Assembly: GCA_000091205.1 (NCBI GenBank)
Contig: AP006485.2
Length of the DNA: 64,000 nucleotides
From: Cyanidioschyzon merolae
Lineage: Eukaryota
Direction: 5' to 3' (one strand)
In this document: one piece after another, positions 15,876 through 55,932 of the stretch
Position numbering within the stretch: the stretch's first letter is position 1
How the letters are laid out: the number at the start of each line of letters is the position of its first letter
The notes under the pieces: model-generated
Seen by the model: the letters and a program-made list of their open reading frames with translations, nothing else
What the model was told of the DNA's origin: nothing
Databases searched by the model: none
Program-made: the position numbers and the translations under genes

Positions 15876-16024
15876 GCCGGCCACTGAAAACAAACGTCTT
15901 TCAAAAGAAAAACGTTGCCGCCAACGGTGTACAGTAGTGACGGGAAACGCGCCGTAAGCAAATCGTCTCCAGCTGAGGTGCAGACGCATCCCAGTCTTTT
16001 TCGACCGTCCACCTACTACGTCTT

Positions 16025-19930: not shown

Positions 19931-19954
19931 CCAGCCAGCCAGCATAAAGTCATC
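19931..19954. repeat. (AGCC)6 tetranucleotide microsatellite
   Basis: agccagccagccagccagccagcc in a gene-free stretch. Confidence 0.9.
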
Positions 19955-23439: not shown

Positions 23440-26295
23440 TTGTTGGACAGCTGTCACGCGCTTCAAGGAGGAGACACTGCTCCCGCAACGCTACTTGCAC
23501 TGATCACCTGGGTAAACGCCGCCTGTTGTGCTGCGCAGCCTCGACGCACCTGTGGCGGTGTTTGTCTAGTCCTTTTCCATTCGACATTGACTGAAACGGA
23601 CTTTCGCTCTGCCCAAATCGCCTACCGTGTTCGTGGAAACAAGTCTCTTCGTCGACACGAGGCTCTGACTGCGTCGCACGCTTCCATGCCGTGCGACGCA
23701 CAAGCGGGCCAGCGGCTTGTTCGGGCCCTGTCGCGAGCAGAGACTTGGGATACTCGGCGGGCTCTGCTGCAGACGCTGGTCTCTGAGCTTCGAGATACCG
23801 AGAGTGTCACTTTTTTCCTACAGGAAACGAAACTTCGCTCGGTGCTCGGCCAGCTAATCGAAAGGGCCTTGCGGGCAGCGCAGCCACACATCGTCGACCT
23901 ACTGGACCTGACGATGCAGGTGATTAAGTGCCTTGTCAAGTCGATGCAGAGAGAGGATGTGGTCGATTTTCTGGAGGAAAGCAAGTCTCTCGTTCACGGC
24001 CTTAAAGCGCTTCGAAAATTAGGACGCAGCAAAGGCGTTTCTGCGGAGAATTTCGTCGCTGACGCATCCGAAAAAGCCTGGGGCGAGCGACTTGCGACCT
24101 TGCGTGAGCAGGCTGCGAATATAATCGCTGAAATGGAACAGGTAGCTGGCCGAGAAAAACCCTCGACGCCATCAGCGCCCGAAGAAACACCAGAGGCAGG
24201 TGAGAGTCGTTCGCTACCGGTAGCCGTGCATGCACCAGTCCAAACAACCGATTCCAGTCACCCTGGTACCACTGAAGCATCTATTCACGCGAATGCAGAT
24301 GCGAGTAACGCTTCTGCAAAGGCCGCTGCATCCCAGGATGATACATCAGAGCCAGCACAGTCGACTGTTGGGGAACACGAAACGCCTCTGGCGGTCGGGG
24401 CGCTTTCGAGTTTCGCCTCGGCAGACGCGTCGATGAAAACGGGACGTAAGCGACCGCGTCCACGACCAGAACGTGACACAGCTTTGCCGGCTTTTACAAG
24501 CTCCTCTGATGAAGCTTCCCAAAGTGTTTCTGCTCGAGCTACGGAATCTGTAGGTACGCAGCCGACCGTCGACGTTAGTGACGCAGATGCGTCGCTCTTG
24601 CCACAACAAGCTTCAGCACACGTAACAGCAGCTCGAGCGGAGCGAATGCATCACTCCGATGCCCTCGAGACAACGTCACCACCTGGAGCAACAATACCCG
24701 AGCGATGTGCGAACGAAGCAACGCATCATGTACCTACACCTACCGTGCGCGATGCAGGTCACACCGGCGATATCGCCGAAAAGGAAGCATCATCAGCCGA
24801 ATCAACATCATTCGTAGCACCAGAAGAGGCAGCAGCAACTTGTGCGATAACCAATCGATCTGCGAAGCGAGCGAAAATGGAGGCTCCGCGTCCAGCCCTT
24901 CGGATCCGAACATCCGCTGACGCATCATCGACGAAACTTGCTCGAAAACCTGCATCAAAGCGTGTTCATTTCGCCCCAGAGCCTGTGCTTGTGCAAGTCT
25001 ATGCCTTTGAATATATTCCCGACGAGCGCACGCATGCCCCTGTGAACCTCGCTGGCATCGTGTCTGATACCGATGAACCGGCATTGGACGGGGAATCAGG
25101 TGCGACGAGTGCGACCAAAGAGCGATCGACGCACGCTCCAGGCAATGGATTCTCAGAGGTCGTAGAGGAGGGTCGTCTCATGCAAAAGAAACGCCAACAT
25201 CGCCAGAAAGTTCTTGCTGAAATGCGGGAGGATGCGACATTCTACCCGCCGCCACATGTCGAGAGTTCCTGTCCGCTGGGAGCAGCTGGCGAATGCGAGC
25301 AGCTGTCCGACGTTCTCGCCAACGGCTCTACTGTTGGATGCGTTCCACGCAACGCGGACAGTCATCAAAGCGGTACCATTGGAGTCGTTTCGCCTGGGTC
25401 GCTATCGTCCGGTGTGCCCGACGAACCGATGCCGCCGTCGCCACCTCGTGAGCGCTCGCTCGACAGGCAGACACCACCACCGAGCCTGCGGGTGATTCCA
25501 GAGTATCGCGTGGAGCATCCAGCTCCAACCTCGTTTTCCTACACACCGGCAGGGGCGCTTGCACCGGCGGGAACACCAGAAGCGACCGTATCTGCACCAG
25601 CGGCTGCCACGACTGCAAACCTATTGACATCGTTCCACGGGACACGAGGCCCAAGTACGCTGGATCCAACGCGATTGCAAACGAAGCCCTCGGATCGGAT
25701 ACAGCCGCCTCACCTGGAGACCAGCCTCTGGTCAGCGATTCCACCGAATACGAGCGGCACGCCTGTTTCGGCTACATCGCAAGGCCAGCATACCGACCTA
25801 TTGCAGCGCAATCAGATAGATGAGGCTATCTTGCAGCATTTCCTGCTCGTGAAAGACGAAGAGACCCGTTTACAATTACTTTGTGATGAAAATGTCCTGC
25901 GAGTAGTCCAAAAGTACGCGGAAGAGAAACAGCGAGAGGCGGCTTTGCAGCACGCACATGGCTACCGCCATGCGAACGCAGCACCCGGTAACCAGTGGAG
26001 CGGTTATCCAGCACCGGCACCGGCACCAGCACCAGCACCACTAGCGGCAGCGTTTCCTGCACTGACTCCTCAACAGGCTCCGTTCCCGGTGTTGAATGGC
26101 ATGCCATCGGACCCGATCGGCTATCACGGATTCGTTTCGCCAGCGCTGCGAAGAGAGACCGCCAGCTCCGCTGCGTACGCTCAAGCGACTGGGGTGAACA
26201 ACGACTCCGCACCTATTTGCAAGTACCACTTGCGCGGTTATTGCAGACGCGGTAAGTGGTGTCGCTTCCGGCATATATCGCCGGACAAGCCATAG
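23440..26295 (+). CDS. Low-complexity nuclear protein with a C-terminal CCCH zinc finger; the N-terminal helical region is TFIIS-N-like (PNUTS-like architecture, speculative)
   Basis: The 951-aa ORF ends with CKYHLRGYCRRGKWCRFRH (C-x7-C-x5-C-x3-H). Most of the body is Ala/Ser/Pro/Thr-rich with a PAPAPAPAPAP tract. The segment near residue 80 (MPCDAQAGQRLVRALSRAETWDTRRALLQTLVSELRD...VDLLDLTMQVIKCLVKSMQ) is a helical bundle resembling a TFIIS N-terminal domain. The annotated start is probably too far upstream. Confidence 0.5.
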   Translation: MLDSCHALQGGDTAPATLLALITWVNAACCAAQPRRTCGGVCLVLFHSTLTETDFRSAQIAYRVRGNKSLRRHEALTASHASMPCDAQAGQRLVRALSRAETWDTRRALLQTLVSELRDTESVTFFLQETKLRSVLGQLIERALRAAQPHIVDLLDLTMQVIKCLVKSMQREDVVDFLEESKSLVHGLKALRKLGRSKGVSAENFVADASEKAWGERLATLREQAANIIAEMEQVAGREKPSTPSAPEETPEAGESRSLPVAVHAPVQTTDSSHPGTTEASIHANADASNASAKAAASQDDTSEPAQSTVGEHETPLAVGALSSFASADASMKTGRKRPRPRPERDTALPAFTSSSDEASQSVSARATESVGTQPTVDVSDADASLLPQQASAHVTAARAERMHHSDALETTSPPGATIPERCANEATHHVPTPTVRDAGHTGDIAEKEASSAESTSFVAPEEAAATCAITNRSAKRAKMEAPRPALRIRTSADASSTKLARKPASKRVHFAPEPVLVQVYAFEYIPDERTHAPVNLAGIVSDTDEPALDGESGATSATKERSTHAPGNGFSEVVEEGRLMQKKRQHRQKVLAEMREDATFYPPPHVESSCPLGAAGECEQLSDVLANGSTVGCVPRNADSHQSGTIGVVSPGSLSSGVPDEPMPPSPPRERSLDRQTPPPSLRVIPEYRVEHPAPTSFSYTPAGALAPAGTPEATVSAPAAATTANLLTSFHGTRGPSTLDPTRLQTKPSDRIQPPHLETSLWSAIPPNTSGTPVSATSQGQHTDLLQRNQIDEAILQHFLLVKDEETRLQLLCDENVLRVVQKYAEEKQREAALQHAHGYRHANAAPGNQWSGYPAPAPAPAPAPLAAAFPALTPQQAPFPVLNGMPSDPIGYHGFVSPALRRETASSAAYAQATGVNNDSAPICKYHLRGYCRRGKWCRFRHISPDKP

Positions 26296-30332: not shown

Positions 30333-32096
30333 CTAAAGAATTGAATCTTGATCATTTTGCAGCTGTAGCTGCCGTTGCTGCTTCAGGCGACGAGCTTCCT
30401 GTCGAGCCTGGCGACGTAGTTGTTCAGATCGCATTCCCGGGCGCCGGCTCTTTCTCGAAACGCTGGTTCCCGAGGAAAGCGCCAGCTCATTACTGTTTGC
30501 CACCAGCGGGCTAGCATCCCTGCTAGTCGACTGCGCGCTCCCCATAAACGCTAACCCAAACAAATCCCGGAGGAACGGGTTGCCCTCAAGCTGGACAGTC
30601 AGTGCTCGCCCACATGCTCGACGCAGAGCATCTAACTGCCGTCGTTGCGCCCAAGTCCTGGCTTGCAGACGTTCCTGCGCTCGTCCGCGGCGAAGCGAAA
30701 GCGTCTCTATTCCAGAACGTTGCGTTGCAGCGCGTTCAACCAGACGCAGCAGTGAGCGGTTGCGCTTCCCAAGCCGATAGCGCTGGGCACCAACCGTGAA
30801 TGCGACGCGTTCCAGAGCCCTGTCAAGCTTGTCGATACCCGCGGAAGTTATCGTCGACGACGACGACGAAGAAGAAGAAGAAGAAGAAGAAGATGATGAT
30901 GATGACGAAGAACAAGGTGGTGAATCCCGGCATTCCGAAGATGCTGACGATTCGCCCGCCTGGAAAGAGCCCTCGGCTGCATCGACATGGAGACGCGCTT
31001 CTCGATCTGCCTCAGCGAATGCAGCCACAGCATCAACATCATCGTCTGTGTGATCGTTGTCCATATGATGAGCAGGTATATTGGATCCAAATACCCCGGA
31101 ATCGGTTCCTTGAGAGTGCTCCAACAACAACGCTATGGCTTCTGTTGCCGCTAAACAGGTCTCCTTCGGTGTGGATGTGCTTTTCCAGTCACCTTGGACG
31201 GCGTGCAACTCGAGCCACTGGCGTAACGGACGCGCTTTTAACTGGGTCCGTATCACCTCCGATGGACAGGCACTCGCTAACAGTGACCATCCCCGAATAG
31301 CGGCCGCTACAACCTGGTCGAACGCGCTCGACTCGCCAAGACGCTGTTTCGTTTCACCAGTTGACAGGTCGCTCGGCGACGTATCCTGCCCGAACCAGCT
31401 TTCTAAACGCTGCATCAGCGCTACCAATGCAACTGAATCAGATGAAGCCAAAAAACGCAACAGACTCACCGTCTCTATGACACAGACTTGCCACTGAACC
31501 CACTCGGGGTCCGGTCGAGGCGCACTGCGTTCACTCGCTTCGAGCAAGACCTGCTCGAAACGTGTTCGCTGCAGGAGCGCCTCAACTGTTTCAGTGTCAG
31601 TGGTGCTTGCCACAAGCGTCAATACGCTTGTACCAATGAGTCGACAGACTTCGCGTTTCTCCCAGAGCGACCCTCGTCGCAGCGGGCCTCGCAAGGCCTG
31701 CTCCACGAGCTGCTCACAGCGTGTCTCCGACCAGAGGTCGGTACGGAGTCCCAGGTCCGTCAGCTGCCGTGCCCTATGGAGCGCTGCTTCTCGTAGCCAG
31801 CGCCGTTTGTCCGTTAGACTGTCAATGCACTCGTCTAGGGCTTCAGACTCGCTCGTCAGCACGCAGCCTCGGTCGAGGATGCTTACCAGCATGTTTTCAG
31901 AGGTGCCAGTGCCCCTGAGAGACGACGCCGAGGCGTTGCTCGAATAGGAGGCGTTCCAGGAGTCACTTGAGCAGTCCAGTGGTGTTTCCTCGCCATTCGT
32001 GTCGTTTGGAGGCGTCATGGTCTCTGTTTTGTCCGAATGCCGTCGACGTCGTTGGTCGGTCTCCTTTCGGTTCCGGGCTTGCCGCCGTGGAGCCAT
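30333..32096 (-). CDS. Hypothetical protein with an internal poly-Ser(18) tract
   Basis: The 587-aa ORF is much longer than any overlapping frame. The codon-repeat region 30841-30910 (GAC/GAA/GAT on plus) encodes SSSSSSSSSSSSSSSSSS on minus. The N- and C-terminal ends are basic and Arg/Gln-rich. No family assigned. Confidence 0.45.
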   Translation of the reverse strand: MAPRRQARNRKETDQRRRRHSDKTETMTPPNDTNGEETPLDCSSDSWNASYSSNASASSLRGTGTSENMLVSILDRGCVLTSESEALDECIDSLTDKRRWLREAALHRARQLTDLGLRTDLWSETRCEQLVEQALRGPLRRGSLWEKREVCRLIGTSVLTLVASTTDTETVEALLQRTRFEQVLLEASERSAPRPDPEWVQWQVCVIETVSLLRFLASSDSVALVALMQRLESWFGQDTSPSDLSTGETKQRLGESSAFDQVVAAAIRGWSLLASACPSEVIRTQLKARPLRQWLELHAVQGDWKSTSTPKETCLAATEAIALLLEHSQGTDSGVFGSNIPAHHMDNDHTDDDVDAVAAFAEADREARLHVDAAEGSFQAGESSASSECRDSPPCSSSSSSSSSSSSSSSSSSSTITSAGIDKLDRALERVAFTVGAQRYRLGKRNRSLLRLVERAATQRSGIETLSLRRGRAQERLQARTWAQRRQLDALRRACGRALTVQLEGNPFLRDLFGLAFMGSAQSTSRDASPLVANSNELALSSGTSVSRKSRRPGMRSEQLRRQARQEARRLKQQRQLQLQNDQDSIL

Positions 32097-33139: not shown

Positions 33140-35904
33140 CTAGTCGTAGGCGACGAGCCTCTTCAATATGCTGCGCAGCGTTCGACAACGTACTGGCCAG
33201 TGAGGATCCGCAGTGGTGCTGGTGCTGGTGCTGGTGCTGGTGCTGGTGCTGGTGCTGGTGTCTCTTCCAGGGCCCATCAGGGACGCAAAATAAGCCGACA
33301 ACACCTTCTCCGTCTGCTGCCGAAAGCTCCGCAACAAGACAGCCGTTCGTGCAGCACAACGAAAGCGGATCCAACCATCAACGATAACCCGCTGAGCTTC
33401 GTGTTCAATACGGATATCGCGGCCGCTGAAAAGCAACACGGCAAAGACAGGTACAGCGCTTACCTGCTGTACAAAAGCACGACTCGTAGTGACCCGCTGG
33501 GCGTAGGTAAACCACCGGACTGCGTGAGATGACAGCTGCTGCCGCTGCTCCTCGCTACGTTCCAGACGTACCAACGATGACGGGTGCAGCCACACCGGGG
33601 TATTGGTTTCGTCAAAGAGTTGCCATGTGGTTGAATTCGGTGTCGCTCCATTCCCGTGCTTCGCAGAAGATGTATCCTTCTGCTGCTTTCCACTCACTGG
33701 GGTCGCTCGCAACAGTTGCGGCACCAGTGCTGCGTATAGGACTGCTCGGTGGATCCGTTGATGCTGTTCGTTTTCGTGCCAGTCGATGGGCCCTGGCTCG
33801 AGTCCAATGTCGTCGAGCGTTCGCTCCAGAGAAAGTCGTGTCTGTTGAATTTGTTCCATGACGCGTTCGGAGAGTGCATTCTGTGCGAGGAACGCAGCCA
33901 ACGCCCCTTTCCCCGCAGAGGCCGCCTGTGCGCACAGCGTCTGCCACTGCTGCCAAACGTAAACCGCACTTGCTATATCGCTATCGAATGAGCTGTAGGC
34001 CTCTAAGCGATGCCTCTGGATGAGACTTGAGCCACCGCCAGTGATGCGCGCAAAAGGTGAACCTTCGATCAGAACCGCTGCAGCAGTGAGACTCCAGGAC
34101 AAACAGCCAAATATGGCTCCGTAGAGGAGCAACTTGCCCACAGTCGGATCCAACGGCAGTGCGGAGAGGATGCACCCCAGGGGCGTGCATTCCAGATCCT
34201 TCAGCGACGACGACAACGACGACAACGACCAGAGTTCCGCGCTAGGACCCGTTTCCCCGTTCAGCGTTCGAGGCAAGTGCTGCGTTGCACTCGATGCTCC
34301 CGCGGGGACGTCTCCCGAGGCCTCATCGTGGACGACGACTGCGTCGCGCCTCGTCTTTTGCGCAGCAACCTTGATGCCGTTCGCCGTCCATGCAAGCCCA
34401 GATGCGGCAAGCATATCACCTGACGATAACTGCAGAGCGCCCATTTGCCACAGTCGCACGATTGCTGCCTCTGTGTGTGCCTGCGGTGGTGCCGTCATCA
34501 TCTCGCGTTGCAGCAGCTGCACAACCTGCTCGAGGCTGTGACGCGCTCCACGCTCTGCAGTCGACCAGCCGAGCAGCCAGAGGATCCAGCGCTCCAGCGG
34601 CGTGCGTACCAGTTCAGGTTCAGTGTCCTCTGGGAGATGCTTCAACCAGAAGGGATCACGTGGTATCAGTCGCCAGCAGATACCGGCGGTTACACGGCCA
34701 GCTCGTCCAGCCCGCTGTGCCGCAGACGCTTTGGAGCACCAGGACTCGCGCAACTGGAGCGCACCCCGGGTAGCGGGTTGCATCTGCAGACTCCGCACTC
34801 GACACGTGTCGATGACTGCAACAACATCCGGAACGGTAATGCTCGACTCGGCAACATTGGTTGCACATATGACTTTGCGTTGCTGTAGCGGATCCGGTGC
34901 TTCCGCGAAGACACGTTCCTGTTCGACGGCGGTTTGATTGGCGTGCAGCGGCAACGCCCAAAACGATGCTACTCCTCGGGCTTGAAAAGTGCTCGACAGC
35001 TCAGCGTCTGGGCGATGCGCGCTGCTACGACCTCCCAGTCGATGCAGTCGCCGACACAGCTGTTCGGTTTCCACGACGCCCGGCAAGAACACCAGAATAG
35101 CTCCGCGTTTCCCGGATCCACAGCGTGCTTCCTGAGCGCTCAGCTCCTCGTCTAAGCGTCGTACTACGAACTCGACTAGGGCCAGGGATGCTCCTTTGAC
35201 GCTGCTGAACCCCAGCGGTGTCCATTGTTGGGCGTCGGACGCAGCGCAGGACTCCTCGTCTGCGGGGTCGACGTTTTCGCCCCAGGTACCAGCAGCAGTG
35301 CTTCCCGACGCTTGGCGTTCCGCACTACGCTCTGGATGCCGTCCAAACACGTCCGCAGCGTTGTTACTGGCAGCGTTCGCAGTTTCTTCGAGCTGAAGCG
35401 CATCGAGCATGGGCGAGAGCTTCGTTTCCGTATTAGCGCCGGCATCAAGTGCAAGATCCATCTCTGGCGTTCTCTGGGCGCTCGCTGCTGTCGCTTCCAA
35501 ACATCGTATCTGCTCCAGCGAGCGGGCATCGGTCGCTGCTAGCTGCTTCATGGACAATGGCTTGGTATGAGCGGCACCAGCACGACCTGCCCGATGATCA
35601 GCATCATCCGTAGGGTGCTGGTGAGCGCACCGCTTTGCCAGCTGGAACGCTTGCCAGGAGGCGGCATCCTTCGCTCCCGTGTCGAGCTCATGGTGCTCGT
35701 CCTGTTCACAGAGCGACACGACTTGCGCATCATCACAGACGTGAAGTATTGGATGAGCAATGGTGGTAGCGGAGCGTTCTACGGAAGCGGTACCATGCGC
35801 GCTACCGTTCCGCCAACTGGGTAGATCCTCAAGCCAACGAATCATCACCGGAAACGTGCGACCAGGTATCTGAAGGACTCGAAGAGTGCGTGGTGTTGAC
35901 GCAT

Positions 35905-35935
<31 letters not shown>

Positions 35936-38591: not shown

Positions 38592-38624
<33 letters not shown>

Positions 38625-41900: not shown

Positions 41901-42693
41901 CTTCCACATCTGCAAAACTTCCAACAAAAATCCCAAGGCATGTCCAGTGCAAACAGCGCACAGTTCAATTTTCATCTGCCAAGAGCACAGTGCTTCGTTT
42001 ACTGCAACTGCTATTGCTACTGTTACGATCAGATTAACTAGACCGCATGCGTCATATTAGTGTCGCGGCATTACACCTGATGCATATTCAACGGATATCG
42101 CATGCGGCATTGGGGAGGCTTGCTCTCCTCTAGGCAGTCTCACTTGGATCCTGAGCGCGAGAACACATCCCAGGCAGCCATGATAAGCGGCCCTGAACCA
42201 CGCAGGCGATACCGCCTCGACAGCTCCAACATCAGTTGAAGCGTTTTTCGCATCAAGCGGTAAGGGGAAAGGTTTCGGCCGGTTCCAGAGCTGGGCAGCT
42301 GCGCAGGTGGATTCTGGAAGTTTCCAATACATACGACCATGCTTTCGTCAATCTACGGGCTATGGGGATCGCACGTGCACGGCTCATCGCCAGCTGGAAA
42401 ACGACGCTTCATGAGGTAGTCCACAGCAATCATGAATGCGCTGGCGTTTGGATGGATTCATTGCGAGTTCAAGCAGCGACACAAGGAAAGCACTCTCGAC
42501 GACGACGACGACGACGACAACAACAACAACAACGAGCGATCGCCACAACAGGAACCGTGCGAGGTCGAGTGCAATGCTCACAGCCAGTACCGTTCTGCAC
42601 TCGTTGCCGGGCGGGTAGAGCGATTCTGTGCAGCTGAGAAGGATTGCCTCTCTTCGCGAGTTCGAGTGCTTTTTGCAGTGCAGCACAAGAGCA

Positions 42694-44202
42694 TCAGGTT
42701 GAGTTGGGCGTCACCACTTTTCGACGAAAACGCGGCACGTAGCGAGTGTCCGTATACTCTTCCAGGAATTCGCCATGAAGCATCTCCTCTGTATAGTTGC
42801 ATTTGAGGTACACGAAAACTTCCAGAATAAAATTCGGGTCCGCGAGGGCGCGAACCAAAGTGCGTTCCCGATGATAGTTCTCGCCGACATTTTCCAAGAC
42901 GTCGAGCATGGCGAGCTCCTCATCATCGACTCGATAGACTTCGCCTCGGACGTGCTTGCCAACTCCGGTTCGGTTCAAAAGAAACGGTGTGAAATGCGGA
43001 CCTCCGATAATCAGTGGATATCGCTCTATGGTTACGTAGCATCCCTCAAAAATGGCGTGATGGAGCAGCGGATGATTCGGATATCCCCGCTTCAGCGTGC
43101 CGTAGACAAAGACCCAGTGAGGGCGATGCTTGATCGGTTCGTGCGATCCCATGGATCGAGCTGCAAGCCACCGCTGAAGATTACTCATGTTCAGTGAAGC
43201 CGGTGAAGCGGTCGTTGAGGACATCGCAGCAGCAGAATCAGCAGCTGTTGTTGCCGATGCAACCTGCTCTACACTGTCTAGCTCGTGCCACAATGGAGAC
43301 GTCTGATGAGGGTCCGAGTGCTCCCGTCGAAAGAGGCTCGGCTCGCTGCGGATCGGATACAGACTTGCACGAAAGGACCCCGCCACTGAACCTTGCGTCG
43401 GAGATATGCAGATACCCTCACGCTCCTCGTTCTCCTCAGCCAAGCTACATCTTGAGCTCGGCGCATGCGAGTGTTCGGAGTATGCAGGAGAGCTAGTACC
43501 GACAGCGCCTGCAGCCTGTGCTCTACCGCCGTAACCAGCATGACCTCCTCTGACGGAGTTCTCCTCAGAGTCGGCACTGCTCCCCTGGTACAGCTGCTTG
43601 CGACGTTGACGGCTCGCTTGGTAATAGGTGCCGCGGAGCGAGCCACCGATGCCAAGGTCAGAGTCGAGGTCAGCCAGCAGGTGTCGTGTATGTGGGTTGC
43701 TGCGAGCCATATCCGGATGGGTGCGCCCCGGAGCCCGCACCGGACCTGTGGGCGGTGCTGGATACTTGAGCTCGTAGGGGCCCTCGAACAGAACGTCATA
43801 CCACTGACGCAGCTCTTTGCGATGCTCAGTCCGTTCCTCGTCGAGTACGTCTTCGACAGTTAGAGGAGTACCTGGTCCCTGGGACGTAGCATTTTCCCTT
43901 GCGGCTCCGGGTTGCGGGCACCGAGCAGCCTTATCTGACTGAACTACTGCTGTACAGGGAACAGCAAGGGCGCTCGCTACGCTTTCGGCCTCAGGTTCTG
44001 GTGCAGTCTCTTCTGCAGTCGCAGCAGCAGTGGCAGCAACTGCCGATACTGGTGTGCGCTCCTCGCTGTGTTCCAGCGAATTGGGCTTCAGAACGTCTTG
44101 CTCCTCGTTGAGGCCAAGTTGTTTGAACCGCCGGTACCAGTCGGCACCGTGAACTTTCTCGCCGTCTGATTGACGACTGGCACGAAAAGCACCCGGTGAC
44201 AT
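42694..44202 (-). CDS. Protein with a C-terminal gamma-glutamylamine cyclotransferase / AIG2-like (GGACT) domain and a long disordered N-terminal region
   Basis: The C-terminal 150 aa read HWVFVYGTLKRGYPNHPLLHHAIFEGCYVTIERYPLIIGGPHFTPFLLNRTGVGKHVRGEVYRVDDEELAMLDVLENVGENYHRE. The YGTLKrG...E pattern defines the AIG2/GGCT-like fold. The N-terminal 350 aa are Ala/Ser/Glu-rich. Confidence 0.6.
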   Translation of the reverse strand: MSPGAFRASRQSDGEKVHGADWYRRFKQLGLNEEQDVLKPNSLEHSEERTPVSAVAATAAATAEETAPEPEAESVASALAVPCTAVVQSDKAARCPQPGAARENATSQGPGTPLTVEDVLDEERTEHRKELRQWYDVLFEGPYELKYPAPPTGPVRAPGRTHPDMARSNPHTRHLLADLDSDLGIGGSLRGTYYQASRQRRKQLYQGSSADSEENSVRGGHAGYGGRAQAAGAVGTSSPAYSEHSHAPSSRCSLAEENEEREGICISPTQGSVAGSFRASLYPIRSEPSLFRREHSDPHQTSPLWHELDSVEQVASATTAADSAAAMSSTTASPASLNMSNLQRWLAARSMGSHEPIKHRPHWVFVYGTLKRGYPNHPLLHHAIFEGCYVTIERYPLIIGGPHFTPFLLNRTGVGKHVRGEVYRVDDEELAMLDVLENVGENYHRERTLVRALADPNFILEVFVYLKCNYTEEMLHGEFLEEYTDTRYVPRFRRKVVTPNST

Positions 44203-45212
44203 GAGCTGTTGACCCGTCCCCTACCCGAGAAAAGCCTCTGGGCGCTAATGCACTAGTCCGAGCAGCTCCAGCGTTGCGTCGCCCGTGTCGTTGCCCAGTT
44301 CGTTGAAGCCAACAGACCTGTTGCGGGCGTTCCAGCGATGATTGCATGGTGTCCATCGGTGGCGTTCGTAGCACTCACGGTTGACGTTCGCACAGAGCGG
44401 GAAGGTAAAGCCGCTCTGGGTCGATACGGCATCCGAAGTGGTGCTGTAGGCGGTATTGTGGAAGCTGGCGGTAGGATGGACACGTGACCGGTCGTATGAC
44501 CGAGCCATGAACTTCGACGGCAAGTAGGTGCAGTGGCTGGTAGAACTGAGGAGGTATGTTGCGTCACGACGTTCGCTTTATCTGATGCTGGCAGGAATCA
44601 CGCCGTTCGGGATCCCTGGTCTGTATACTCGTTGCGTCGATAAGAAAAACGGTGTTTCTAGAGTGCAACGCCGACACGTCCGGGAGCTTGCTTGCGCGAC
44701 AGCGCACGATACAGGGCAACTCGTAGGCCAAACGAGTCTTCTCGATAGATAGGCAGTAGACTGCTCTGGGCGGTACCATGCAGACACCCACGTATTTCGC
44801 GAACTGGCGAGAGCTCGAATACAGCACACGTCGAAGCTCTTCTACGAAAGCGACGTTCCCCGTAATTCCGAGTATCGCTCTTTACTGAACAAAGCACCTC
44901 TTTGACATTCTTGCTGGCGTCCTACGTAGAAAATGACAATTTCGTTGCGTCCATGGTGGTGTCAGCACATGCTTTGACGCTCTATTCGGAAGACAGAGCT
45001 CTAATCGACCTCACACGCTGTCGTTTCAAGCACGGAGCATGAGCGTCTCGACGCAAGGCGCTCCTAGTGCCGTGTGTGCAGCACAATGCACCACGAGAAG
45101 CGCACGGTGCTATGTATGGACGGCGCACGTGCGGAGCATCCAGAGCGCTGTGGCTACCCGGCGATGCACCAGAGTCTCGCTACCTCTCCATATATTGCGA
45201 GCAAACGCATCT

Positions 45213-45918
45213 GAGGCATTCCTTCGTACTATCGTTCATGTATATACTAAAGAATGTTTAAAATATCTATGAACATCCATGGGATACCTTCCGAGTGCCA
45301 TTCTGAATGGATATGAGGCATTCCTTCGTACTATCGTTCATGTATATACTAAAGAATGTTTAAAATATCTATGAACATCCATGGGATACCTTCCGAGTGC
45401 CATTCTGAATGGATATGAGGCATTCCTTCGTACTATCGTTCATGTATATACTAAAGAATGTTTAAAATATCTATGAACATCCATGGGATACCCTCCAAAT
45501 GCCATTCTGAATGGATATGAGGCATTCCTTCGTACTATCGTTCATGTATATACTGTAGAAAATGTTTAAAATATCTATGAACATCTATGGGATACCCTCC
45601 GAGTGCGATTCTGAATGGATATGAGGCATTCCTTCGTACTATCGTTCATGTATATACTAAAGAATGTTTAAAATATCTATGAACATCTATGGGATACCCT
45701 CCGAGTGCCATTCTGAATGGATATGAGGCATTCCTTCGTACTATCGTTCATGTATATACTAAAGAATGTTTAAAATATCTATGAACATCCATGGGATACC
45801 CTCCGAGTGCCATTCTGAATGGATATGAGGCATTCCTTCGTACTATCGTTCATGTGCATACTGTAGAAAATGTTTAAAATATCTATGAACATCTATGGGA
45901 TACCCTCCGAGTGCCATG
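45213..45918. repeat. AT-rich tandem array, 102-bp unit (one 108-bp variant), about 6.9 copies at over 95% identity
   Basis: The unit gaggcattccttcgtactatcgttcatgtatatactaaagaatgtttaaaatatctatgaacatccatgggataccttccgagtgccattctgaatggatat restarts at 45213, 45315, 45417, 45519, 45623, 45725 and 45827. The only variation is a tgtaga insertion in two units and a few point differences. The unit is roughly 37% GC in a GC-rich background. There is no ORF through the array. Confidence 0.95.
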
Positions 45919-46068
45919 CTGCCAACCTGCTGGTCAAGCGCAAGACGATCGCATCCACGCTCTAGTCGCAGTGCCGATCCGACGCTAGACAAGCAGCACG
46001 GTTTTTGTTGCTCGCAAGGAGCGAGCAGAAGCATTGATTCAGTTGGGGGATAGCTCTGGCGTCTGGAA

Positions 46069-47649
46069 TTGAACCAGGCTATACCTCACTGCCGACAAGG
46101 GCATGCAGATCTTCTCAGCAAGATTGCCGAAGGAATGGAACAGCGGCGGTCTGACCATAGGCGCTGGGGCCCACGGGAGCACTTGCGGCGCCTAGACTGG
46201 CAGTTTGCAGCGTTGCTGAACAGACACGCTCGCTGGGTCCATTTGCTCGAAGAAGCATTACACCTTGTCGCGGTGCTCGGTGCACCTGGAGGCAATGTGG
46301 AGCTGCGCGCAGAGGCAGTCTCCGTTCTCGCTGGAGCTCTGGAATGGTACCGTCGGAGACGTCGCACGCCTCTGAGAGAAGCAGCTGCGCTTCCTGCCAC
46401 GTTAAATTCCCTGCGCTGGGCCGAGACGCTCGTATCGATGCTCCGCGTGATCGAGCATACGGAGCTGCTCCTGGAAATGTTGAGCCAGAGCGACGTACCC
46501 GAAAGTCTGGACGGAACGGACCGCTGGCGACACGACGCAGACCCGAGCGGCGCCACAAACGACTCTGCTATGGACTGGATGCGCATCCGCCAAAACCATT
46601 GGTTTTATTCCTGGATTGGTACTCGAGTGCGAGCTGCAAACCTAGGAAACGCGCTTGAGTCGGCGCATGCGCGCACCCACTATTCCAGAGGCTTCCGACG
46701 CTCCTACAACATGGTACTGGTCCTTGAAACGCTCAAGGCGGTCCTGCGAACCGCCGTTCCCGAGCAGACGAACAACCTCTCCTCAACAAGAGGTGCATAT
46801 GACTGTGCGCAGAATGAACGTGCACAGATCAAGAAGATGCTGCTCGACTGGGAGCGACAGGGAGCACTGCAACTCCGGATTGTTCCTCGGCGCGGCGAGC
46901 GCAGTGGACGTTCATTTTTCACCTCAATACGTCCAACAACAACAACAACAACAACGGTTCTTGGTGACATAACGCCAACTGAACCCCCTCCATTGAGGCG
47001 GCCCAGTCAAGCAACCGTCGCTGATGAGCAGGCATGTGCGGAGCAAACCTGTTCCAAATACGCGAACATGGATCAGAGGCATCCGACTGCAGCCGCCTCA
47101 GTACCGATTGAGGACATCTTCATGTTTGTTGCTGATCGGCGCGGGCTCGTTATGGCTGAACGACTCTGGGCGGCGACTGAACGCTACCTACAGAGCATTC
47201 ACGAGCAAAATGCGCAGAGGAACCGGCGAAGCGCTGCAGGTGCTGCACCCTTCGTATGGGTTCCCGGTGACGATCTCCGTTCCAAGATCGCCACTTGGAT
47301 CCGCGTTTGGCGACCAGTTATCTATCTTGCCTTTGTGCCACGTGTCGCACCGTGGAGTAGTTGGCTCATTTCGTTCATGCTGGATGTGATATCGAGGCGC
47401 TGGTTGTTGCAGGGTGGCGGTGACGGCTCGCCTGCTGGCGACATTTCACACCGAGAAGGGGTCCGGATACCACCACCTTCGCCGCTGCTCTTGTACCTGT
47501 TACGAGAACCCGTATACTCCAACGTTATCGTTCGCTGTGTGCTTTTGCCGTGGATGCGTCGCGGCCGAATGCATCGATTTGTGGGATCATTGGCACTGGG
47601 CCTCACTCAGGCCGCTACAAAGTATTACTTCCTCACCGCTGCATCGTAG
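46069..47649 (+). CDS. Hypothetical protein
   Basis: 526-aa ORF dominating its region, with a non-ATG annotated start (the first ATG gives MEQRRSDHRR...). It contains a (ACA)7 Thr run. No recognisable family motif. Confidence 0.35.
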   Translation: MNQAIPHCRQGHADLLSKIAEGMEQRRSDHRRWGPREHLRRLDWQFAALLNRHARWVHLLEEALHLVAVLGAPGGNVELRAEAVSVLAGALEWYRRRRRTPLREAAALPATLNSLRWAETLVSMLRVIEHTELLLEMLSQSDVPESLDGTDRWRHDADPSGATNDSAMDWMRIRQNHWFYSWIGTRVRAANLGNALESAHARTHYSRGFRRSYNMVLVLETLKAVLRTAVPEQTNNLSSTRGAYDCAQNERAQIKKMLLDWERQGALQLRIVPRRGERSGRSFFTSIRPTTTTTTTVLGDITPTEPPPLRRPSQATVADEQACAEQTCSKYANMDQRHPTAAASVPIEDIFMFVADRRGLVMAERLWAATERYLQSIHEQNAQRNRRSAAGAAPFVWVPGDDLRSKIATWIRVWRPVIYLAFVPRVAPWSSWLISFMLDVISRRWLLQGGGDGSPAGDISHREGVRIPPPSPLLLYLLREPVYSNVIVRCVLLPWMRRGRMHRFVGSLALGLTQAATKYYFLTAAS

Positions 47650-48082
47650 GAGATTCTGAAGACATCGCTATCCGTATGCGGCTTGTAATCGCCGTCTCAC
47701 TCGGCATGCTTTCGGGCAGGCACCATCATTGTTTGAGCGAGGTGCACAGCTTCAGCGATTGGTTGTGACCAGTACGGGCACAGCTTCCTGAAGCATTCCC
47801 TTCAACTTATGCCATGTGTTTTCTGGTGCCGCGGTACCGAAGCAAGTATGCGTCCGCAGTGGCATTTTACGCATCCATCGAAAGCAGGATCCGGGCTCGT
47901 ACGAAAGCGCTACACCGCCCTGTCGTCCTGCAGTGAGGGGACCGCCCGTGTTCGCTTGTGAACATGCTCTTTCGGTAACAGCATACGTTTCTGAAAGGAG
48001 CGATGGACACACTATCGCGTGGACGCTCTCTCCTGTCCACCACAGACACGATTGAAGCAGCGCGGATGCATCTGCGCCAGCG

Positions 48083-48721
48083 TTAGCCCCACTGCGATCG
48101 CAGCTTCCACGCAGCCAACTGTGCATCGTTCAAAACGCCTTCATATGACTTAAGCTCTGCATCCCAGCTAAGGTGGCGATCAAGGCGACAACCAAGCGAG
48201 TCCGGATGCGTGCTCCCGCAGCACGACCAGCGATACTGGAGGACCCACCGACTCGCTGAGCCCGTATCTCTTCCGTACTCGGGCCAGGTGAGTGAGGCTT
48301 CGGCTTCTTCGCGAGGCACCATGAACAATCGATAGTAGCCGCGGTCGCCAAGCGGGTGTCCGTGGAAACGACAAGCTCGCTTGTGGTTGAGACGCTCTTC
48401 GAACAGCTCGCCACAACGTCGACAACGCCCAAGGCGCAACACAATTGGCTCTGTATCCACGTCTTTCGGAGCATTTTCCTCGGGTCCCGGTGATGAAGGC
48501 GTTTTCCTGGAGTTGTCCCCCGCACAGCTTGAGTGCCAGCCACGACGCGAGGTTCGCACGTGTCCGAGGCTGCGGACTCCCCGAGCACCCCGCCGACCAG
48601 CTTGCCTGGGTCGACCAGGTAACGAGCGAGACCACTCGTCACCACGGCGCAGGTCGTTGCGCAGCCTGAGCGCTCCTGTCCAGGATCTGGGAACACAAAG
48701 ATTAACCTGTATGGTAAACAT
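48083..48721 (-). CDS. Hypothetical Cys-rich small protein
   Basis: 212-aa ORF with CRRCGELFEERLNHKRACRFHGH and RWSCCGSTHPDSLGC, which is possibly a zinc-binding module. Called on length and Cys pattern only. Confidence 0.3.
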   Translation of the reverse strand: MFTIQVNLCVPRSWTGALRLRNDLRRGDEWSRSLPGRPRQAGRRGARGVRSLGHVRTSRRGWHSSCAGDNSRKTPSSPGPEENAPKDVDTEPIVLRLGRCRRCGELFEERLNHKRACRFHGHPLGDRGYYRLFMVPREEAEASLTWPEYGRDTGSASRWVLQYRWSCCGSTHPDSLGCRLDRHLSWDAELKSYEGVLNDAQLAAWKLRSQWG

Positions 48722-50001
48722 AGTGAATTCGTCGTTTCCCGGGCACGATACGCTCGAGGAGAAGTACGCGCTTCGAAACGGTATCGCGTCATCGGGATTC
48801 CTGCTGGGCTACGCACGTGTCCTTGTATGCAAAGATTGTCTCATGTTCCCATAGACGCCCTCAGCGCTACCGCTTCTTCTATCCTCATATGCACCCGCGC
48901 TAGACTTGAAAAGACCAGGTACACGAACACGGGTGCATGCACGAGAGGTTTGGATGCCTTCCTCATGTCATGGACACCATTTTTAGGGGTTTTCCCTGCA
49001 GCTGCTTCGTTTGCCAGTCCACTCACGCCGTCCTTCAAAGAGGCCGGTCTGTCGTATCCCTGTAGCTCCGGTGCCAATAGTCGAAGGGTGATGCTGAAGC
49101 TCACGATGATCACGGCAGCGTCCAGGTTCCATAGCCGCTGATTCCGGCGGTTGTCAACGCATTCCATGCCCAGACGAAATGAGCGATCAAGATATCGCTT
49201 GACGCATTCGTCCTCTTTGTGACCGGCCTCGGTGCGCTTTGCGCAGCGGCGACGCCATGTGCTGCTCCGCTCTACTCACAGCTGTACCATAAAACCTTAT
49301 ATTCGGAGAACTGCTGTGTTGCACTTGAACATTTGCTTCATCGCTTGGTACACGCTCTTGTCGGGGACGAGAGAATCACCTTGTTGTCGGCCTCGGTTTC
49401 CGCGTTCGGTACCTACCCTACGATCACGTTCGCCTTCTGGGCGATTCCGTCGACGATGACGCTGGCGTATTCGATAGAGAGTTCTTGGAGCACGATATTG
49501 TCCGAGATGAAACAGGTACAACAGCGGGGATATCCAGACTGGAGGACATGTCGAGAGGTCTCCTCCCGTGTACGCTTACCTCATGCGAAGCGTTTCCATA
49601 CGCTCCACTGGAAGCGACCCCTCTGATGACTGCATTCTGTGTCGAGTAGTCTTCTCCGTGCAAATAGAACAGACGGGAGCCTCTGTTGGCACATCCCATG
49701 ATAAGTACCACGATGCTACGGAAAGCTGATTCGTCGACAGTAGCGCTAGAAGAAAAGCGAACCGTTTGTCGTTCGAAACGAATCTCATACGGATCGCGAG
49801 ATGTTCAGTGTGCTATCGGCATAAGCTGTGAACAAGTCGTCAACCTCGACATCAAGGTACTTTCCTCGTCGATCCAGCGGCATGCCTTGCTGCACATACG
49901 AGTTCCGTGGCAACAGAGCAAGCGTCCTGTTGTCTTCTGCGTTGTTCATGCGAGCTCCAATGATGGAAAGAAGAAGTTTGGAGTCCTCTACCAATAAACT
50001 T

Positions 50002-50904: not shown

Positions 50905-52578
50905 CTACGCTACCTCAGAGACCCGTGTGCTGTACAATGCTGCGTGCTGAAATCCGCTTACAATATGGAAGGTCGAATTCGCAAACTCGGCTCCATCCGC
51001 AGGGCTTGCACGAAAGACATGTACAGGTTCCCAGAAATCGATCGTTCCCGCTCCAGCATCCGGTACCATACGATCGCCTAGTCCGAGTGCTCCACAGAGG
51101 CCGCTGCCCCAACTGTAGAGATCCACGTGACTGTTCTGTATGCCTACGCGAATCGCGTAACTCGTCCGGTAGCCAGCAGCAATGTCGATGATGCTCGCGT
51201 CAGACTGGGCATCCATGAAAGCTTCTATAGGCTGCGGTGACTGCACTGCATGGGAGGCTTGAGTCCCGTAACCCAGACCCAAGCAACCGTTTTCGTTACT
51301 GCCCCAGCTGTAGACCATCCGACGACGGAGCCCGTCTGGCGCCAACTCGACGAGCACCAGCACGTGGTTGAATCCGAACGCAACCTTTTGGACTCGCCCT
51401 CGAATCGACGGCAGCGGAGTCGGTTCCCAGAAGATCCTGTCGGAGAACTTGCCCCAGACAACGAGCTCACCGCTCTTCTTCAGGATTGCACCGGCTGCGT
51501 TGAAGCCAGCAAAGAGCTTTGCCACCGGTTCGCCGTGCAGTGCACGCAGCCGTCGAAAAGTCCCCACGAAGCGCTGTCCGCCTGGACCAGAGAGCGTCTG
51601 GTCCACAGTCGCAGGATGTCCTAAACCCAGTTGTCCGTACTCGATGGAGCCGCTGCCGTAGACACTGCCATCAGCAGCGCGTATGAGTGTGAACTGATCC
51701 CCACAGACTGCCTGCACGGCATGAACGTTTGATCGGGCCAATGCTTCGACAAGCAGCGGGCGTTCGATCGTTTTCGGAACGGATGCAATGCCCCGAGCGC
51801 TCCGTCCAGTAGACACATGCCCCAGTTGCCCGTGGGTGCCACGTCCACACGTATACACGTGTCCATCCGAGGACACCCAAACCGAATGGGCAGCACCAGC
51901 CGCTACATCCGAAAGGTGCGGCTGCTGCTGAGGTGCCCAGCGAACAGCGAGCGGTGTCCAACGCGACCAGCGCATCCAGCGCCATGGCCAACGACTGAAG
52001 CCAACTTGCTGCTGCTGGTGCTGCTGCTGGTGCAACCATGCAGTGAGCAGCGACTGGAGTGGTGCACGCGGCACCAGCGCTTCCGAAGGCAGTCCGAGCT
52101 GACCCTCGGACCCGAGACCGAAGCTATACGCGTCCCCGTTCTCCAGCAGCACGATGGAGTGCGCAGCTCCAAGCGCAACCCGTTTGATGGAACTCGGCAA
52201 ATTGTCGAGGGCCTCGGGCCTCGTACAGCGTCGCCCAGCACCAAAGTCGCGATCCAGCTCCGTTCGTGAGAGCGGTACCCCGAGACGGCCGTCGTCTGCG
52301 TTACCCCAAAACCAAACAACGCCTTTCGGTTTGCTGTGCGACTCCTCAGTGGCACCGAGGTCTTGCGCCTTTACCGAGAAGCGCCGAGCGCCGAGCTTGG
52401 GAGCGATGAACCCTAGCGCAGTACTGAGTGCCCGCTGCAGGTCACTCGGGCAGCGCTCTATTACCTGGAATCCTGCGAAGGGATGCAGGCCGGTAAAACC
52501 ACGCCCAAGCTTGAACGCGTATCGCAACTGCATTCGGTCTCCAGTCGACGATAGCAGTGCAGTAGTAGAACCAGTCAC
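50905..52578 (-). CDS. RCC1-repeat (regulator of chromosome condensation-like) beta-propeller protein
   Basis: At least six RCC1 repeats carry the signature spacing: VYTCGRGTHGQLG, VYGSGSIEYGQLGLG, LVVWGKF, VYSWGSNENGCLGLG, LYSWGSGLCGALGLG and AYSFGLGSEGQLGLP. An internal poly-Gln run (QQQHQQQQ) is present. Confidence 0.8.
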   Translation of the reverse strand: MTGSTTALLSSTGDRMQLRYAFKLGRGFTGLHPFAGFQVIERCPSDLQRALSTALGFIAPKLGARRFSVKAQDLGATEESHSKPKGVVWFWGNADDGRLGVPLSRTELDRDFGAGRRCTRPEALDNLPSSIKRVALGAAHSIVLLENGDAYSFGLGSEGQLGLPSEALVPRAPLQSLLTAWLHQQQHQQQQVGFSRWPWRWMRWSRWTPLAVRWAPQQQPHLSDVAAGAAHSVWVSSDGHVYTCGRGTHGQLGHVSTGRSARGIASVPKTIERPLLVEALARSNVHAVQAVCGDQFTLIRAADGSVYGSGSIEYGQLGLGHPATVDQTLSGPGGQRFVGTFRRLRALHGEPVAKLFAGFNAAGAILKKSGELVVWGKFSDRIFWEPTPLPSIRGRVQKVAFGFNHVLVLVELAPDGLRRRMVYSWGSNENGCLGLGYGTQASHAVQSPQPIEAFMDAQSDASIIDIAAGYRTSYAIRVGIQNSHVDLYSWGSGLCGALGLGDRMVPDAGAGTIDFWEPVHVFRASPADGAEFANSTFHIVSGFQHAALYSTRVSEVA

Positions 52579-54049: not shown

Positions 54050-55674
54050 TGCAGCGTTGGTAAGATGATTGGCGTTATTTGGAGCTCCACTGTTCCTGTG
54101 CCCAAGGCACACCGGCATGCGGTGCAAGGCCGTAGACCTGGGTACTCTGTACGATTCTGGGCACGCCAGTAGAAGCTGATCTATCAGCGATGTGACCCTT
54201 TGGAAGCCGACAGTTTCTCTGACAGATCCGTTCGCAACGAAGATACGGAATGCATTTTGCATCAGAGCGGCCGTCGTTATTCGCTCTGCGCATCTACGCT
54301 GCCTGGATCGCTAACTTTTTTGTGCCCCAGAGCATATATGAACACAGACATTCCAAGTCCTTCGGGATGCTTGATGCTCCCGATGCAGTTCGTGTCGCGT
54401 ACGCAGCAGAGGAGGTGTGTGGGGCGCTAGTGGCGTCCTGCGAGCGTCGCCAGGCACAACTTTAGCCTCTGTTCTTGAGATACAGACACCTGTCACGCAA
54501 TATTCCTGCCATGCTAGCACCAGTAAATGAGCTCGTAGACAAGTGCAGCGCCGAGACGCCACTCATGCTCTCTGCTGGCTCGCTCCAGCTTCCCGTATCC
54601 AGCACCACTTCGGATCTCGATTCATCGGGTCTGGATAGGATGCCAACGCATGAGTTCTGGCACAGTCGTGCTTTCGCCTCCCATTGAGACGAGATGTACG
54701 GCGACCAGACACGATTCATGCGATGAACGACGTGCATTCGTTCGGCAGCCGCCGGGCAGCGTAGCCGAGGCCCACGCCAAAAGCAAAATCAGTCGCTGGT
54801 GTGGTATCTTTTAGGCTGATGGCGACACCTTACGTCCCGTGGACACGGCCTTGGGCATCGACACGTTCCAGGAACCTGTCGTGGACGCACATGTGGTGTC
54901 TAGTGCCCGGAAACGCCTCACCAGAGCGTCAGGGCATCGTCCAATGTCTTCCGCTCGGAATCCCTCGACATCGTGGATGCAGCGTATTGCCGCAGGGCGC
55001 TTGTCCGCGACACATGGAACCTCGATGTGCTTCGATTCCGATTATCATGGAATTTTGCGGTCTCCGAGTTGAACCGAATGCAAGCTTTCTCAGCAATCAG
55101 AGCAATGAACGTCATGGATGCTTGTTGAAACATGCGTTCAGCTTGCCCTGGACCCGCATGTTGCGCAACGTGCCTCTCATGGACACGCTGGTCGACTCAT
55201 TTGGTGGTATCGTTCCGCTGCATCCAACAAGGCATCCTCGAGACGCCCGTCGACGTGAGCACACAGCACTCCTGGGACGCACTGTTTGCACCTTCGACCC
55301 TGCTGCAGGGCATGCGGTGCACTCATGTCGGCTGGTCCGATAGCGTGCATGTATCCACGCTCATGCGACCACGAAGAGCGCTGACTTCCACCTCACTTCG
55401 ATGCAAGGGATACCTGCACTACTCCCGAACGCGTATCAGCGATGCTCTTCGGGTCATCGATACCATAAGAGGAAACGTGAACGACGGCAATGGCGCTGTT
55501 GCTTCTCTCAGTGGTGCTCGTATACGCCATGGATCAACCAAGCCTCCAATGCATTGTAGACGGGTACACTGCAGATGCTAGACAGCGCCAGCATCGTCTG
55601 GATCGGATTTCGATTGCGCTTACCTCCCGTAAACGTACTTGGAATCTCGCGAACGCAATCTTCTTACACAAATG

Positions 55675-55932
55675 ATCACGACTGCTTGTATACAAGGATA
55701 GCTTTCATTCTTGAAAAGAAAAGCCTAGCGGTACGCAGTCAGTGAGCGCAATACGCATATCATGAAGACTGCTTGTAGAAAAGGTCATGTTCCATTATGG
55801 AAAAGAAAAGCATAGCGTTACACGGCCAGCGAGCGCAATACACATATCATCACGACTGCTTGTATACAAGGTCTGCTTCCATTCTTGAAAAGAAAAGCAT
55901 AGCGTTATATGGCCAGCGAGCGCAATACACTT
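55675..55932. repeat. 87-bp tandem repeat x3, intergenic and upstream of the 56166 gene
   Basis: Units at 55675-55761, 55762-55848 and 55849-~55932 share ...actgcttgtatacaagg...cattcttgaaaagaaaagcatagcg...gccagcgagcgcaatacacatatc at roughly 85-90% identity. Confidence 0.85.

Follow-up and report, generated by a model that had tools for sequence, protein, structure and literature searches.

In Cyanidioschyzon merolae 10D, the divergent chromosome 3 genes CMC173C (minus strand) and CMC174C (plus strand) are separated by a 1,932-bp spacer, which contains an AT-rich tandem array that behaves as a hypervariable minisatellite. The array is specific to this locus and probably arose by duplication of an AT-rich promoter/terminator patch upstream of the transcription start of PEX16 (CMC174C), the extra copies being probably near-neutral. 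The feature is a promoter minisatellite and as such belongs to a known kind, both promoter VNTRs and AT-rich termination zones being familiar. The DNA analyzed was a stretch of 64,000 nt (the window), which was compared with environmental sequences; 35 loci were gathered through exact-protein look-ups, and the relatives discussed below are C. merolae-like environmental contigs with flanks about 99% identical. An earlier note on this DNA held that the nature of the array could not be decided from the sequence alone, which was a fair statement; public environmental contigs have settled most of the matter.

Tandem Repeats Finder places the array at 45212-45921, within three bases of the limits of 45213-45918 first claimed for it, with a period of 102 bp, 6.9 copies, 95% matches, 0% indels and a score of 1279. 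A higher-order period of 308 bp (96% matches) is also detected in the array. Seven head-to-tail units of 102 or 104 bp (six full and one truncated) start at positions 45212, 45314, 45416, 45518, 45622, 45724 and 45826, and a 27-mer that is invariant among them occurs seven times in the window versus 0.00 times expected in shuffled sequences. The units fall into two subtypes, A (102 bp, containing ...GTATATACTAAAGAATG...) and B (104 bp, containing ...GT[G/A]CATACTGTAGAAAATG...), arranged in 10D in the order A A A B A A B. Unit 1 (45212..45313, plus strand) is of the A type and is identical to unit 2. Unit 4 (45518..45621, plus strand) is the internal 104-bp B unit that gives rise to the 308-bp period, and unit 7 (45826..45921, plus strand) is a terminal B unit truncated at 96 bp. 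Pairwise comparison of the units across about 94 aligned positions gives 0 (units 1 and 2) to 10 changes, with 0-3 differences between A units and 5-10 between A and B units. The earlier estimate of more than 95% identity is therefore correct for the A units and borderline across the whole array.

The GC content of the array is 0.369, compared with 0.561 and 0.549 for the intergenic parts that flank it and 0.548 for the window, which bears out the sharp contrast in base composition seen at first inspection. At scales of 300, 700 and 1500 bp no stretch of the window is lower in GC than the array, and the whole 1.93-kb intergenic region has a GC content of 0.489. The surroundings had also been called repeat-poor, and this is broadly the case; the window holds two further long-period arrays, at 55665-55930 (87 bp × 3.1) and 16875-17019 (75 bp × 1.9), in addition to microsatellites. 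Each unit carries one palindromic TTTAAA core (at 45257, 45359, 45461, 45565, 45667, 45769 and 45873, the terminal core spanning 45873..45878). Of the eight occurrences of this hexamer in the 64 kb, seven belong to the array, and ORFs contain none. A 13-bp palindrome, CCATTCTGAATGG, is found at the unit junctions (45298..45310, and also at 45400, 45502, 45606 with one mismatch, 45708 and 45810). Both this palindrome and the motif AAAATATCT are present in each unit and absent from the rest of the window. No terminal inverted repeats are found at the array junctions.

The plus-strand neighbor CMC174C (46135..47649) encodes PEX16, a protein of 504 aa with a Pex16 domain that is identical to BAM79091.1 over 504/504 residues. 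CMC173C (42694..44202, minus strand) encodes a GGACT/AIG2-like protein of 502 aa with a GGACT/AIG2 domain that is an exact match to BAM79090.1. The end of the array lies 214 bp from the PEX16 ATG, and 1010 bp separate the array from the CMC173C ATG. The array had been described as lying just upstream of a gene at 46069 on the same strand. It does lie upstream of PEX16 on the plus strand; what had been placed at 46069 is the stop-to-stop ORF, and CMC174C is annotated as starting with an ATG at 46135. The genes CMC172C-175C are absent from the lists of H3K27me3 targets in the supplements of PMC5405695, and a full-text search of the available literature for CMC173C, CMC174C and CMC175C returned no paper.

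The unit appears to be confined to this spacer. Its 27-mer matches five contigs of the JGI metagenome collection, each of which is orthologous to the CMC173C-PEX16 region and about 99% identical to it across spacer and flanks, and has no match among viral contigs or in a collection of bacterial and archaeal genomes. C. merolae-like genomes are well represented in the JGI collection, because several of its contigs are 18-53 kb long. A comparison of the unit with the rest of the window (array masked) and with the orthologous loci of two more distant cyanidiophytes (L002 and L003) gave only chance-level matches of 10-15 nt. Of the 10D genome these searches cover the 64-kb window (beside a further 16.5 Mb), together with the metagenome, viral and prokaryotic collections. 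Within that scope the array occupies a single locus and is not dispersed, as is characteristic of a minisatellite and not of a satellite, a dispersed repeat or a transposable element. The suggestion that it might be satellite sequence is accordingly not supported, the unit having matched only this locus among the metagenome contigs and having no other copy in the window. The GC content of the array is plastid-like. Recent insertion of organelle DNA was considered and rejected, as the 27-mer scan of the metagenome gave no plastid or mitochondrial contig. On the strength of the collection and window searches, the unit is thus neither a member of a dispersed family nor a shared satellite nor a recent organelle insert.

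The environmental relatives differ from 10D, and from each other, in the make-up of the array. Among the contigs that span the spacer, some carry one unit (L004=L010, L019, L030 and L031) and others two (L005, L007=L026, L009, L011 and L018), counts that are to be taken as lower bounds since they come from short-read assemblies and units sharing up to 68 identical nt may have been collapsed. In another contig (L008) the units number 5.3 or more. At least 11 contigs end within the array or at its edge (L006, L008, L012-L016, L027-L029, L032 and L034), as happens when short-read assemblers halt at a multi-copy repeat they cannot resolve. The unit orders seen are B, B-B, A-B, ...A-B-B-A-B and A-A-A-B-A-A-B. 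The terminal unit is of the B type in all contigs that reach the right flank, and every spanning contig retains at least one unit. There are private unit variants (for example CGTTAATGTACAT in L008), and the AT-rich core itself varies among units from AAAATATC to AAACTATC. Across the units the variants form a mosaic, a pattern typical of unequal exchange or conversion. In the near-identical relatives the array amounts to 96-200 bp in an intergenic region of 1.3-1.4 kb.

That relatives differ in unit order and carry private variants is a solid observation; that they differ in copy number is likely. The array is regarded as a hypervariable minisatellite because copies number one, two or at least five, because their orders differ and because many contigs break inside it. 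Head-to-tail copies of a unit in the range of about 10 to over 100 bp, with an order that differs between strains, are what defines a minisatellite or VNTR. The 87-bp array at 55665-55930, which is older, has the same length in L005 as in the window, unlike the variable 102-bp array. The proposal of recent amplification or ongoing turnover is thus upheld by the identity of units 1 and 2, by the mosaic variants and by the differences in order and copy number between relatives that are about 99% identical.

Evidence for a function of the unit comes from transcript ends. These were read from JGI environmental contigs, which derive from relatives and not from 10D and are unstranded; their transcript origin and the type of sample were inferred solely from non-templated runs of A or T. 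Six mRNA-like contigs of PEX16 (plus strand) have their 5′ ends at positions equivalent to 45905, 45929, 45945, 45980, 45996 and 46013 (L017, L024, L023, L025, L022 and L001). These ends straddle the right edge of the array at 45921, the first lying 16 nt within the last unit and the furthest 92 nt past that edge. The poly(A) site of PEX16 is at 48734..48736 on the plus strand, as marked by non-templated tails in L001 (A21), L014 (A13) and L023 (A31), and two of the six contigs that define the 5′ ends carry poly(A) tails at 48734/5. The sequence TAAAC lies about 17 nt upstream of this site. The 3′ UTR of PEX16 is about 1.09 kb long and runs antisense across the next gene.

The terminal unit occupies the proximal promoter of PEX16, given 5′ ends at 45905-46013. 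These six assembled ends also substantiate the view that the array is promoter-proximal to the plus-strand gene, and with its end 214 bp from the PEX16 ATG it sits inside a Pol II promoter, as expected of a promoter tandem repeat. Situated some 30 nt ahead of the first of the mRNA 5′ ends, the TTTAAA core of the terminal unit may be a TATA-like element. Contigs beginning at 45794-45812 were considered as evidence of transcription starts further upstream and were discarded, as their ends coincide with variable unit positions where assemblies branch.

Transcripts also end in the two edge units of the array. A poly(A) site on the minus strand is located at 45859 in the terminal unit, where one contig from a relative (L021) has a non-templated T22 followed by a match to 45859-49661. 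On the plus strand, a poly(A) site lies in the first unit at the equivalent of 45278/45279, where, again in a single contig from a relative (L033), a match to 41978-45279 is followed by a non-templated A19 after ...ATGAACATCC. Both of these cleavage sites are 14-17 nt from the TTTAAA core of their unit. Among the functions first put forward for the array, that of a promoter or insulator repeat is favored because poly(A) sites of both strands sit in its edge units.

These observations are consistent with the following scheme. A patch of about 100 bp, AT-rich and directly 5′ of the PEX16 transcription start, would have been tandemly duplicated several times over, presumably by unequal exchange or replication slippage. 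In a compact, GC-rich genome such a patch may act as punctuation where Pol II both starts and stops. It would then provide PEX16 with its proximal or TATA-like promoter region and, as a two-way poly(A)/termination site, prevent read-through or antisense transcripts from crossing between the divergent genes, with plus-strand RNA from the left ending in the first unit and minus-strand RNA from the right ending in the last. Judging from the alleles with one or two copies, a single unit would be enough. The surplus in 10D, five or six copies, is probably redundant and almost neutral, shifting the spacing or strength of the promoter at most. That the unit works as a patch close to the promoter where polyadenylation takes place in both directions is plausible but only partly demonstrated.

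The array might instead be a purely neutral minisatellite whose unit has no role as promoter or terminator, the nearby transcript ends being coincidental or due to the flanking unique sequence. Copy number and unit order do vary freely, variants of the unit are tolerated (including the change of the AT-rich core from AAAATATC to AAACTATC), each of the two poly(A) sites in the array comes from one contig, and more distant relatives carry unrelated duplications, which are not AT-rich, at the same place. However, six independent mRNA-like 5′ ends cluster at the end of the array, both poly(A) sites in it are equally distant from the same palindromic core (a sequence nearly absent from the rest of the 64 kb), and at least one unit is kept in all spanning contigs. 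Complete neutrality is, for these reasons, judged rather unlikely. In another reading, which would resemble the unstable promoter repeats of yeast, the array is regulatory in a copy-number-dependent manner, added units boosting promoter, enhancer or terminator activity or excluding nucleosomes, so that its length tunes the expression of PEX16 (or CMC173C) and is under selection. In keeping with this, the array is rich in AT, close to the promoter and different from strain to strain, tandem duplication recurs at this spacer in three lineages, and each unit has a 13-bp palindrome and a AAAATATCT motif that are otherwise missing from the window. On the other hand, the CCATTC/GAATGG sequence shows no enrichment outside ORFs (the window has 11 copies there, as against 16 within ORFs), the units of the three lineages have no significant similarity, and several mRNA-like contigs start downstream of the array, the internal units not obviously firing. 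Selected tuning of this sort is more doubtful still. For want of such enrichment, a general promoter function of the CCATTC/GAATGG palindrome was rejected as well; the orthologous spacer of Cyanidiococcus has a cluster of it, and that of L003 has none. A scan for bacterial promoters and terminators gave no promoter-like site, the model being irrelevant for a eukaryote.

The same spacer carries tandem duplications in other cyanidiophytes. In Cyanidiococcus yangmingshanensis (L002), where gene order at the locus is conserved and the spacer measures only 621 bp, a 135-bp unit is repeated 1.9 times at 9491-9746 (98% match). In a further cyanidiophyte contig (L003) a 77-bp unit is repeated 2.2 times at 9141-9307 (98% match), to be compared with 102 bp × 6.9 at 45212-45921 (95% match) in the C. 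merolae 10D window. The PEX16 proteins of the three lineages are 46-57% identical. Similarity between the units of the three lineages does not rise above that of shuffled sequences. AT-richness is not a common property of the three duplications, because the units of L002 and L003 are not AT-rich. Arrays with a period of at least 50 bp are found in about 1-2 of 23 other spacers in the window, in one of eight in L002 and in none of eight in L003. The chance of such a coincidence is about 0.003-0.015, a rough post hoc estimate and not a formal test, with a background of 21 kb per relative. As a control, the spacer holding the 87-bp array has no recurrent duplication. The three-lineage coincidence could reflect a duplication-prone site, or luck.

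This recurrence speaks for a reading in which the array is a by-product of a replication origin or fragile site, repeated duplication being due to replication or transcription conflicts and not to promoter function. Three deeply diverged lineages each have a young duplication in the same spacer, with copies 95-98% identical, and transcripts from both sides end at the site. The observation is nevertheless post hoc, it is set against only 21 kb of background per relative, and the region of the 87-bp array used as a control shows no recurrence; an origin or fragile site is considered very improbable. A broader proposal would make the CMC173C-PEX16 spacer a conserved duplication hot spot of the Cyanidiophyceae (a two-way termination/initiation zone, possibly an origin), within which the C. 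merolae unit would be a copy-number-tunable bidirectional terminator/promoter insulator for PEX16. It is speculative, and we would regard its being correct as quite unlikely.

Low GC content also raises the possibility that the array forms all or part of the CENH3-bound centromere on chromosome 3. As described in bioRxiv 10.1101/096016 and PMC11005252, C. merolae centromeres are short low-GC regions of 2-3 kb with a mean GC content of 48.4%, one per chromosome. That of chromosome 2 is placed at 212.6-213.5 kb of 457 kb. The intergenic region as a whole measures 1.93 kb with a GC content of 0.489, and nowhere in the window is GC lower than in the array. Like the centromeres of Kanesaki et al. 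2015 (as described in bioRxiv 10.1101/096016 and PMC11005252), the array is a short region below the genome average in GC. The array differs from them in measuring 0.71 kb and not 2-3 kb, in its GC content of 36.9% in place of 48.4%, in being a repeat, in being reduced to one unit in relatives and in abutting transcript ends. Furthermore, near-identical relatives hold only 96-200 bp of it in a spacer of 1.3-1.4 kb, transcribed genes flank the site and mRNAs end inside and beside the array. According to PMC3744952, no sequence common to all centromeres of the species is known, which counts against this reading. A 64-kb window would include the centromere of a 482-kb chromosome with a prior probability of about 13%. 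Within the window, the region 15889-18389 (GC 0.478), the lowest in GC at the 2.5-kb scale, fits the published description better. A centromeric array is thus highly improbable.

The array had been described as non-coding, and an ORF scan agrees with this, giving only micro-ORFs of 28-37 aa per unit and no long ORF. Stops occur in all frames of every unit, and the reading frame is shifted by the 104-bp units. A coding tandem repeat was therefore rejected, no ORF running through the units. The possibility of an amplified small-RNA gene, also raised at the outset, was followed further. Such a gene (for a snoRNA or similar), present in tandem, might account for weak matches to C/D-box models and for the occurrence of the array edges in RNA assemblies. 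With permissive settings, the Rfam model snoZ185 matched four units with 16.2-16.8 bits (E 2.3-3.6 in a 1.3-kb search) and snR57 matched once with 19.9 bits (E 7.1) versus a threshold of 50. Thresholds overall were 39-60, and nothing in the array reached the gathering threshold. These scores are far too low, with E values above 1 even in a search space of 1.3 kb. A canonical C box (RUGAUGA) is absent on both strands by inspection, and ARAGORN found no tRNA. Folding in three unit phases on both strands gave z-scores of -1.14 to +0.30, which are not significant. Unit B differs from A by changes at unit positions 31-32 and by the 2-bp insertion, all within one arm of the sole hairpin of the unit, the other arm being unchanged between A and B, so that the variants break the hairpin and no compensatory changes are seen. 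One copy, moreover, suffices in relatives. With a best Rfam score of 19.9 bits versus 50, fold z-scores of -1.1 to +0.3 and no compensatory changes, the small-RNA option is not supported, and tandem small-RNA genes are to be considered extremely unlikely.

A minisatellite putatively derived from a promoter/terminator patch has counterparts in several known systems. Unstable tandem repeats in yeast promoters were reportedly described by Vinces et al. in 2009. Like the array they are AT-rich, lie in Pol II promoters and vary in number between strains, and exclusion or spacing of nucleosomes has been proposed for them; they differ in consisting of a short motif, whereas the C. merolae array has a minisatellite unit of 102-104 bp and edge units that are also poly(A) sites. 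Promoter VNTRs are known in the human genes INS and MAOA, and many human minisatellites are GC-rich. Classical minisatellites and VNTRs share with the array a single locus, a head-to-tail arrangement, mosaic variants and polymorphism of both length and order. The unit of the array is, in contrast, at the long end of their range and is AT-rich in a GC-rich genome. The intergenic spacers of Xenopus and Drosophila rDNA contain promoter, enhancer and terminator repeats that serve Pol I at a multi-copy locus. The likeness lies in tandem copies of a piece of the gene's own promoter directly upstream of it, together with termination of upstream transcription. The rDNA spacers, however, belong to Pol I and to multi-copy genes, while the array belongs to a single-copy Pol II gene and any enhancer activity would be putative.

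The C. merolae genome is famous for its near-absence of repeats (PMC1955436). Strain 10D was chosen as a model for a fully sequenced genome of extreme simplicity, and a hypervariable 102-bp array in such a near-repeat-free genome is a handy marker for strains and populations. Gene targeting by homologous recombination is precise in C. merolae, which makes the array a clean test of whether promoter minisatellites affect transcription. The transcript ends further hint that mRNAs of convergent genes may cross the neighboring gene and end in the next AT-rich patch, which would double as the promoter of that neighbor. If general, this rule would affect the annotation of genes and UTRs in C. merolae as well as the design of knock-in constructs.

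The motif AAAATATCT corresponds to the plant evening element and is at most a lead. It is present in every 10D unit and nowhere else in the window, and no literature linking the evening element motif to C. merolae was found. Some of the environmental units carry AAACTATCT in its place.

The intergenic spacer between the divergent GGACT and PEX16 genes, which in C. merolae carries the tandem array, may be a recurrent hot spot of duplication. The orthologous spacer of Cyanidiococcus yangmingshanensis (locus L002) contains a young tandem duplication at 9491-9746 (135 bp x 1.9, 98%), and that of a cyanidiophyte metagenome contig (L003) contains another at 9141-9307 (77 bp x 2.2, 98%). The repeat units of the three orthologous spacers are mutually unrelated. 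A further young tandem duplication (98 bp x 1.8, 97%) lies at 108-287 of the Cyanidiococcus locus, in the spacer beside the DEAD-box helicase gene.

Every unit of the C. merolae array includes AAAATATCT, at 45260-45268 and at the equivalent position of each further unit, and the motif is absent from the rest of the 64 kb. It matches the plant evening element, the target of CCA1/LHY-type MYB proteins. Some environmental units carry AAACTATCT in its place. The Cyanidiococcus spacer holds a cluster of CCATTC/GAATGG hexamers, with six in 237 bp (L002 9459-9695) and 11 across the remaining 20.9 kb. The cluster includes CCATTC-N7-GAATGG, which resembles the CCATTCTGAATGG palindrome found at the unit junctions in C. 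merolae. No such cluster is present in the L003 spacer, and within the window the hexamers are not enriched outside ORFs.

Downstream, three transcript-like contigs from environmental relatives, recognizable by their non-templated A tails, place the poly(A) site of the PEX16 mRNA at 48734-48736 (+), about 1.09 kb past the stop codon. The 3′ UTR (47650-48735, +) is therefore antisense to the entire adjacent minus-strand ORF (48083-48721), and its terminus lies at the 5′ end of that gene. Six contig ends fall at 48621-48741.

The window holds a second, older intergenic minisatellite at 55665-55930 (87 bp x 3.1, 82% matches). About 245 bp separate its end from the downstream start codon (ATG at 56175) of a plus-strand gene whose Cyanidiococcus ortholog has a Glyco_transf_92 domain. 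The length of this minisatellite is identical in the window and in an environmental C. merolae-like contig (L005), and it has no counterpart in L002 or L003.

At the 2.5-kb scale the lowest GC of the window (0.478) is found at 15889-18389, adjoining a 4-kb stretch without long ORFs (17291-21307). GC skew is strongly negative at 16-17 kb, and a 75-bp x 1.9 tandem repeat occupies 16875-17019. The region is similar in size and GC to C. merolae centromeres, described in published accounts as 2-3 kb with 48.4% GC (bioRxiv 10.1101/096016; PMC11005252).

An Rfam tRNA match at 12681-12803 (-) scores 48.4 bits, and ARAGORN reported no tRNA in the window. Because the 71-position model is stretched over 123 nt, the candidate is presumably interrupted by one or more introns.

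Microsatellites with tri- or hexanucleotide units (CCAGCA, GAA, TGGTGC, CAG, GCT and TGCTGCTGCTGG), all perfect or nearly so, occur at 26008-26040, 30868-30916, 33214-33260, 35908-35935, 38593-38623 and 52007-52033. All except 26008-26040 sit within mapped long ORFs and so probably encode homopolymeric amino-acid runs.
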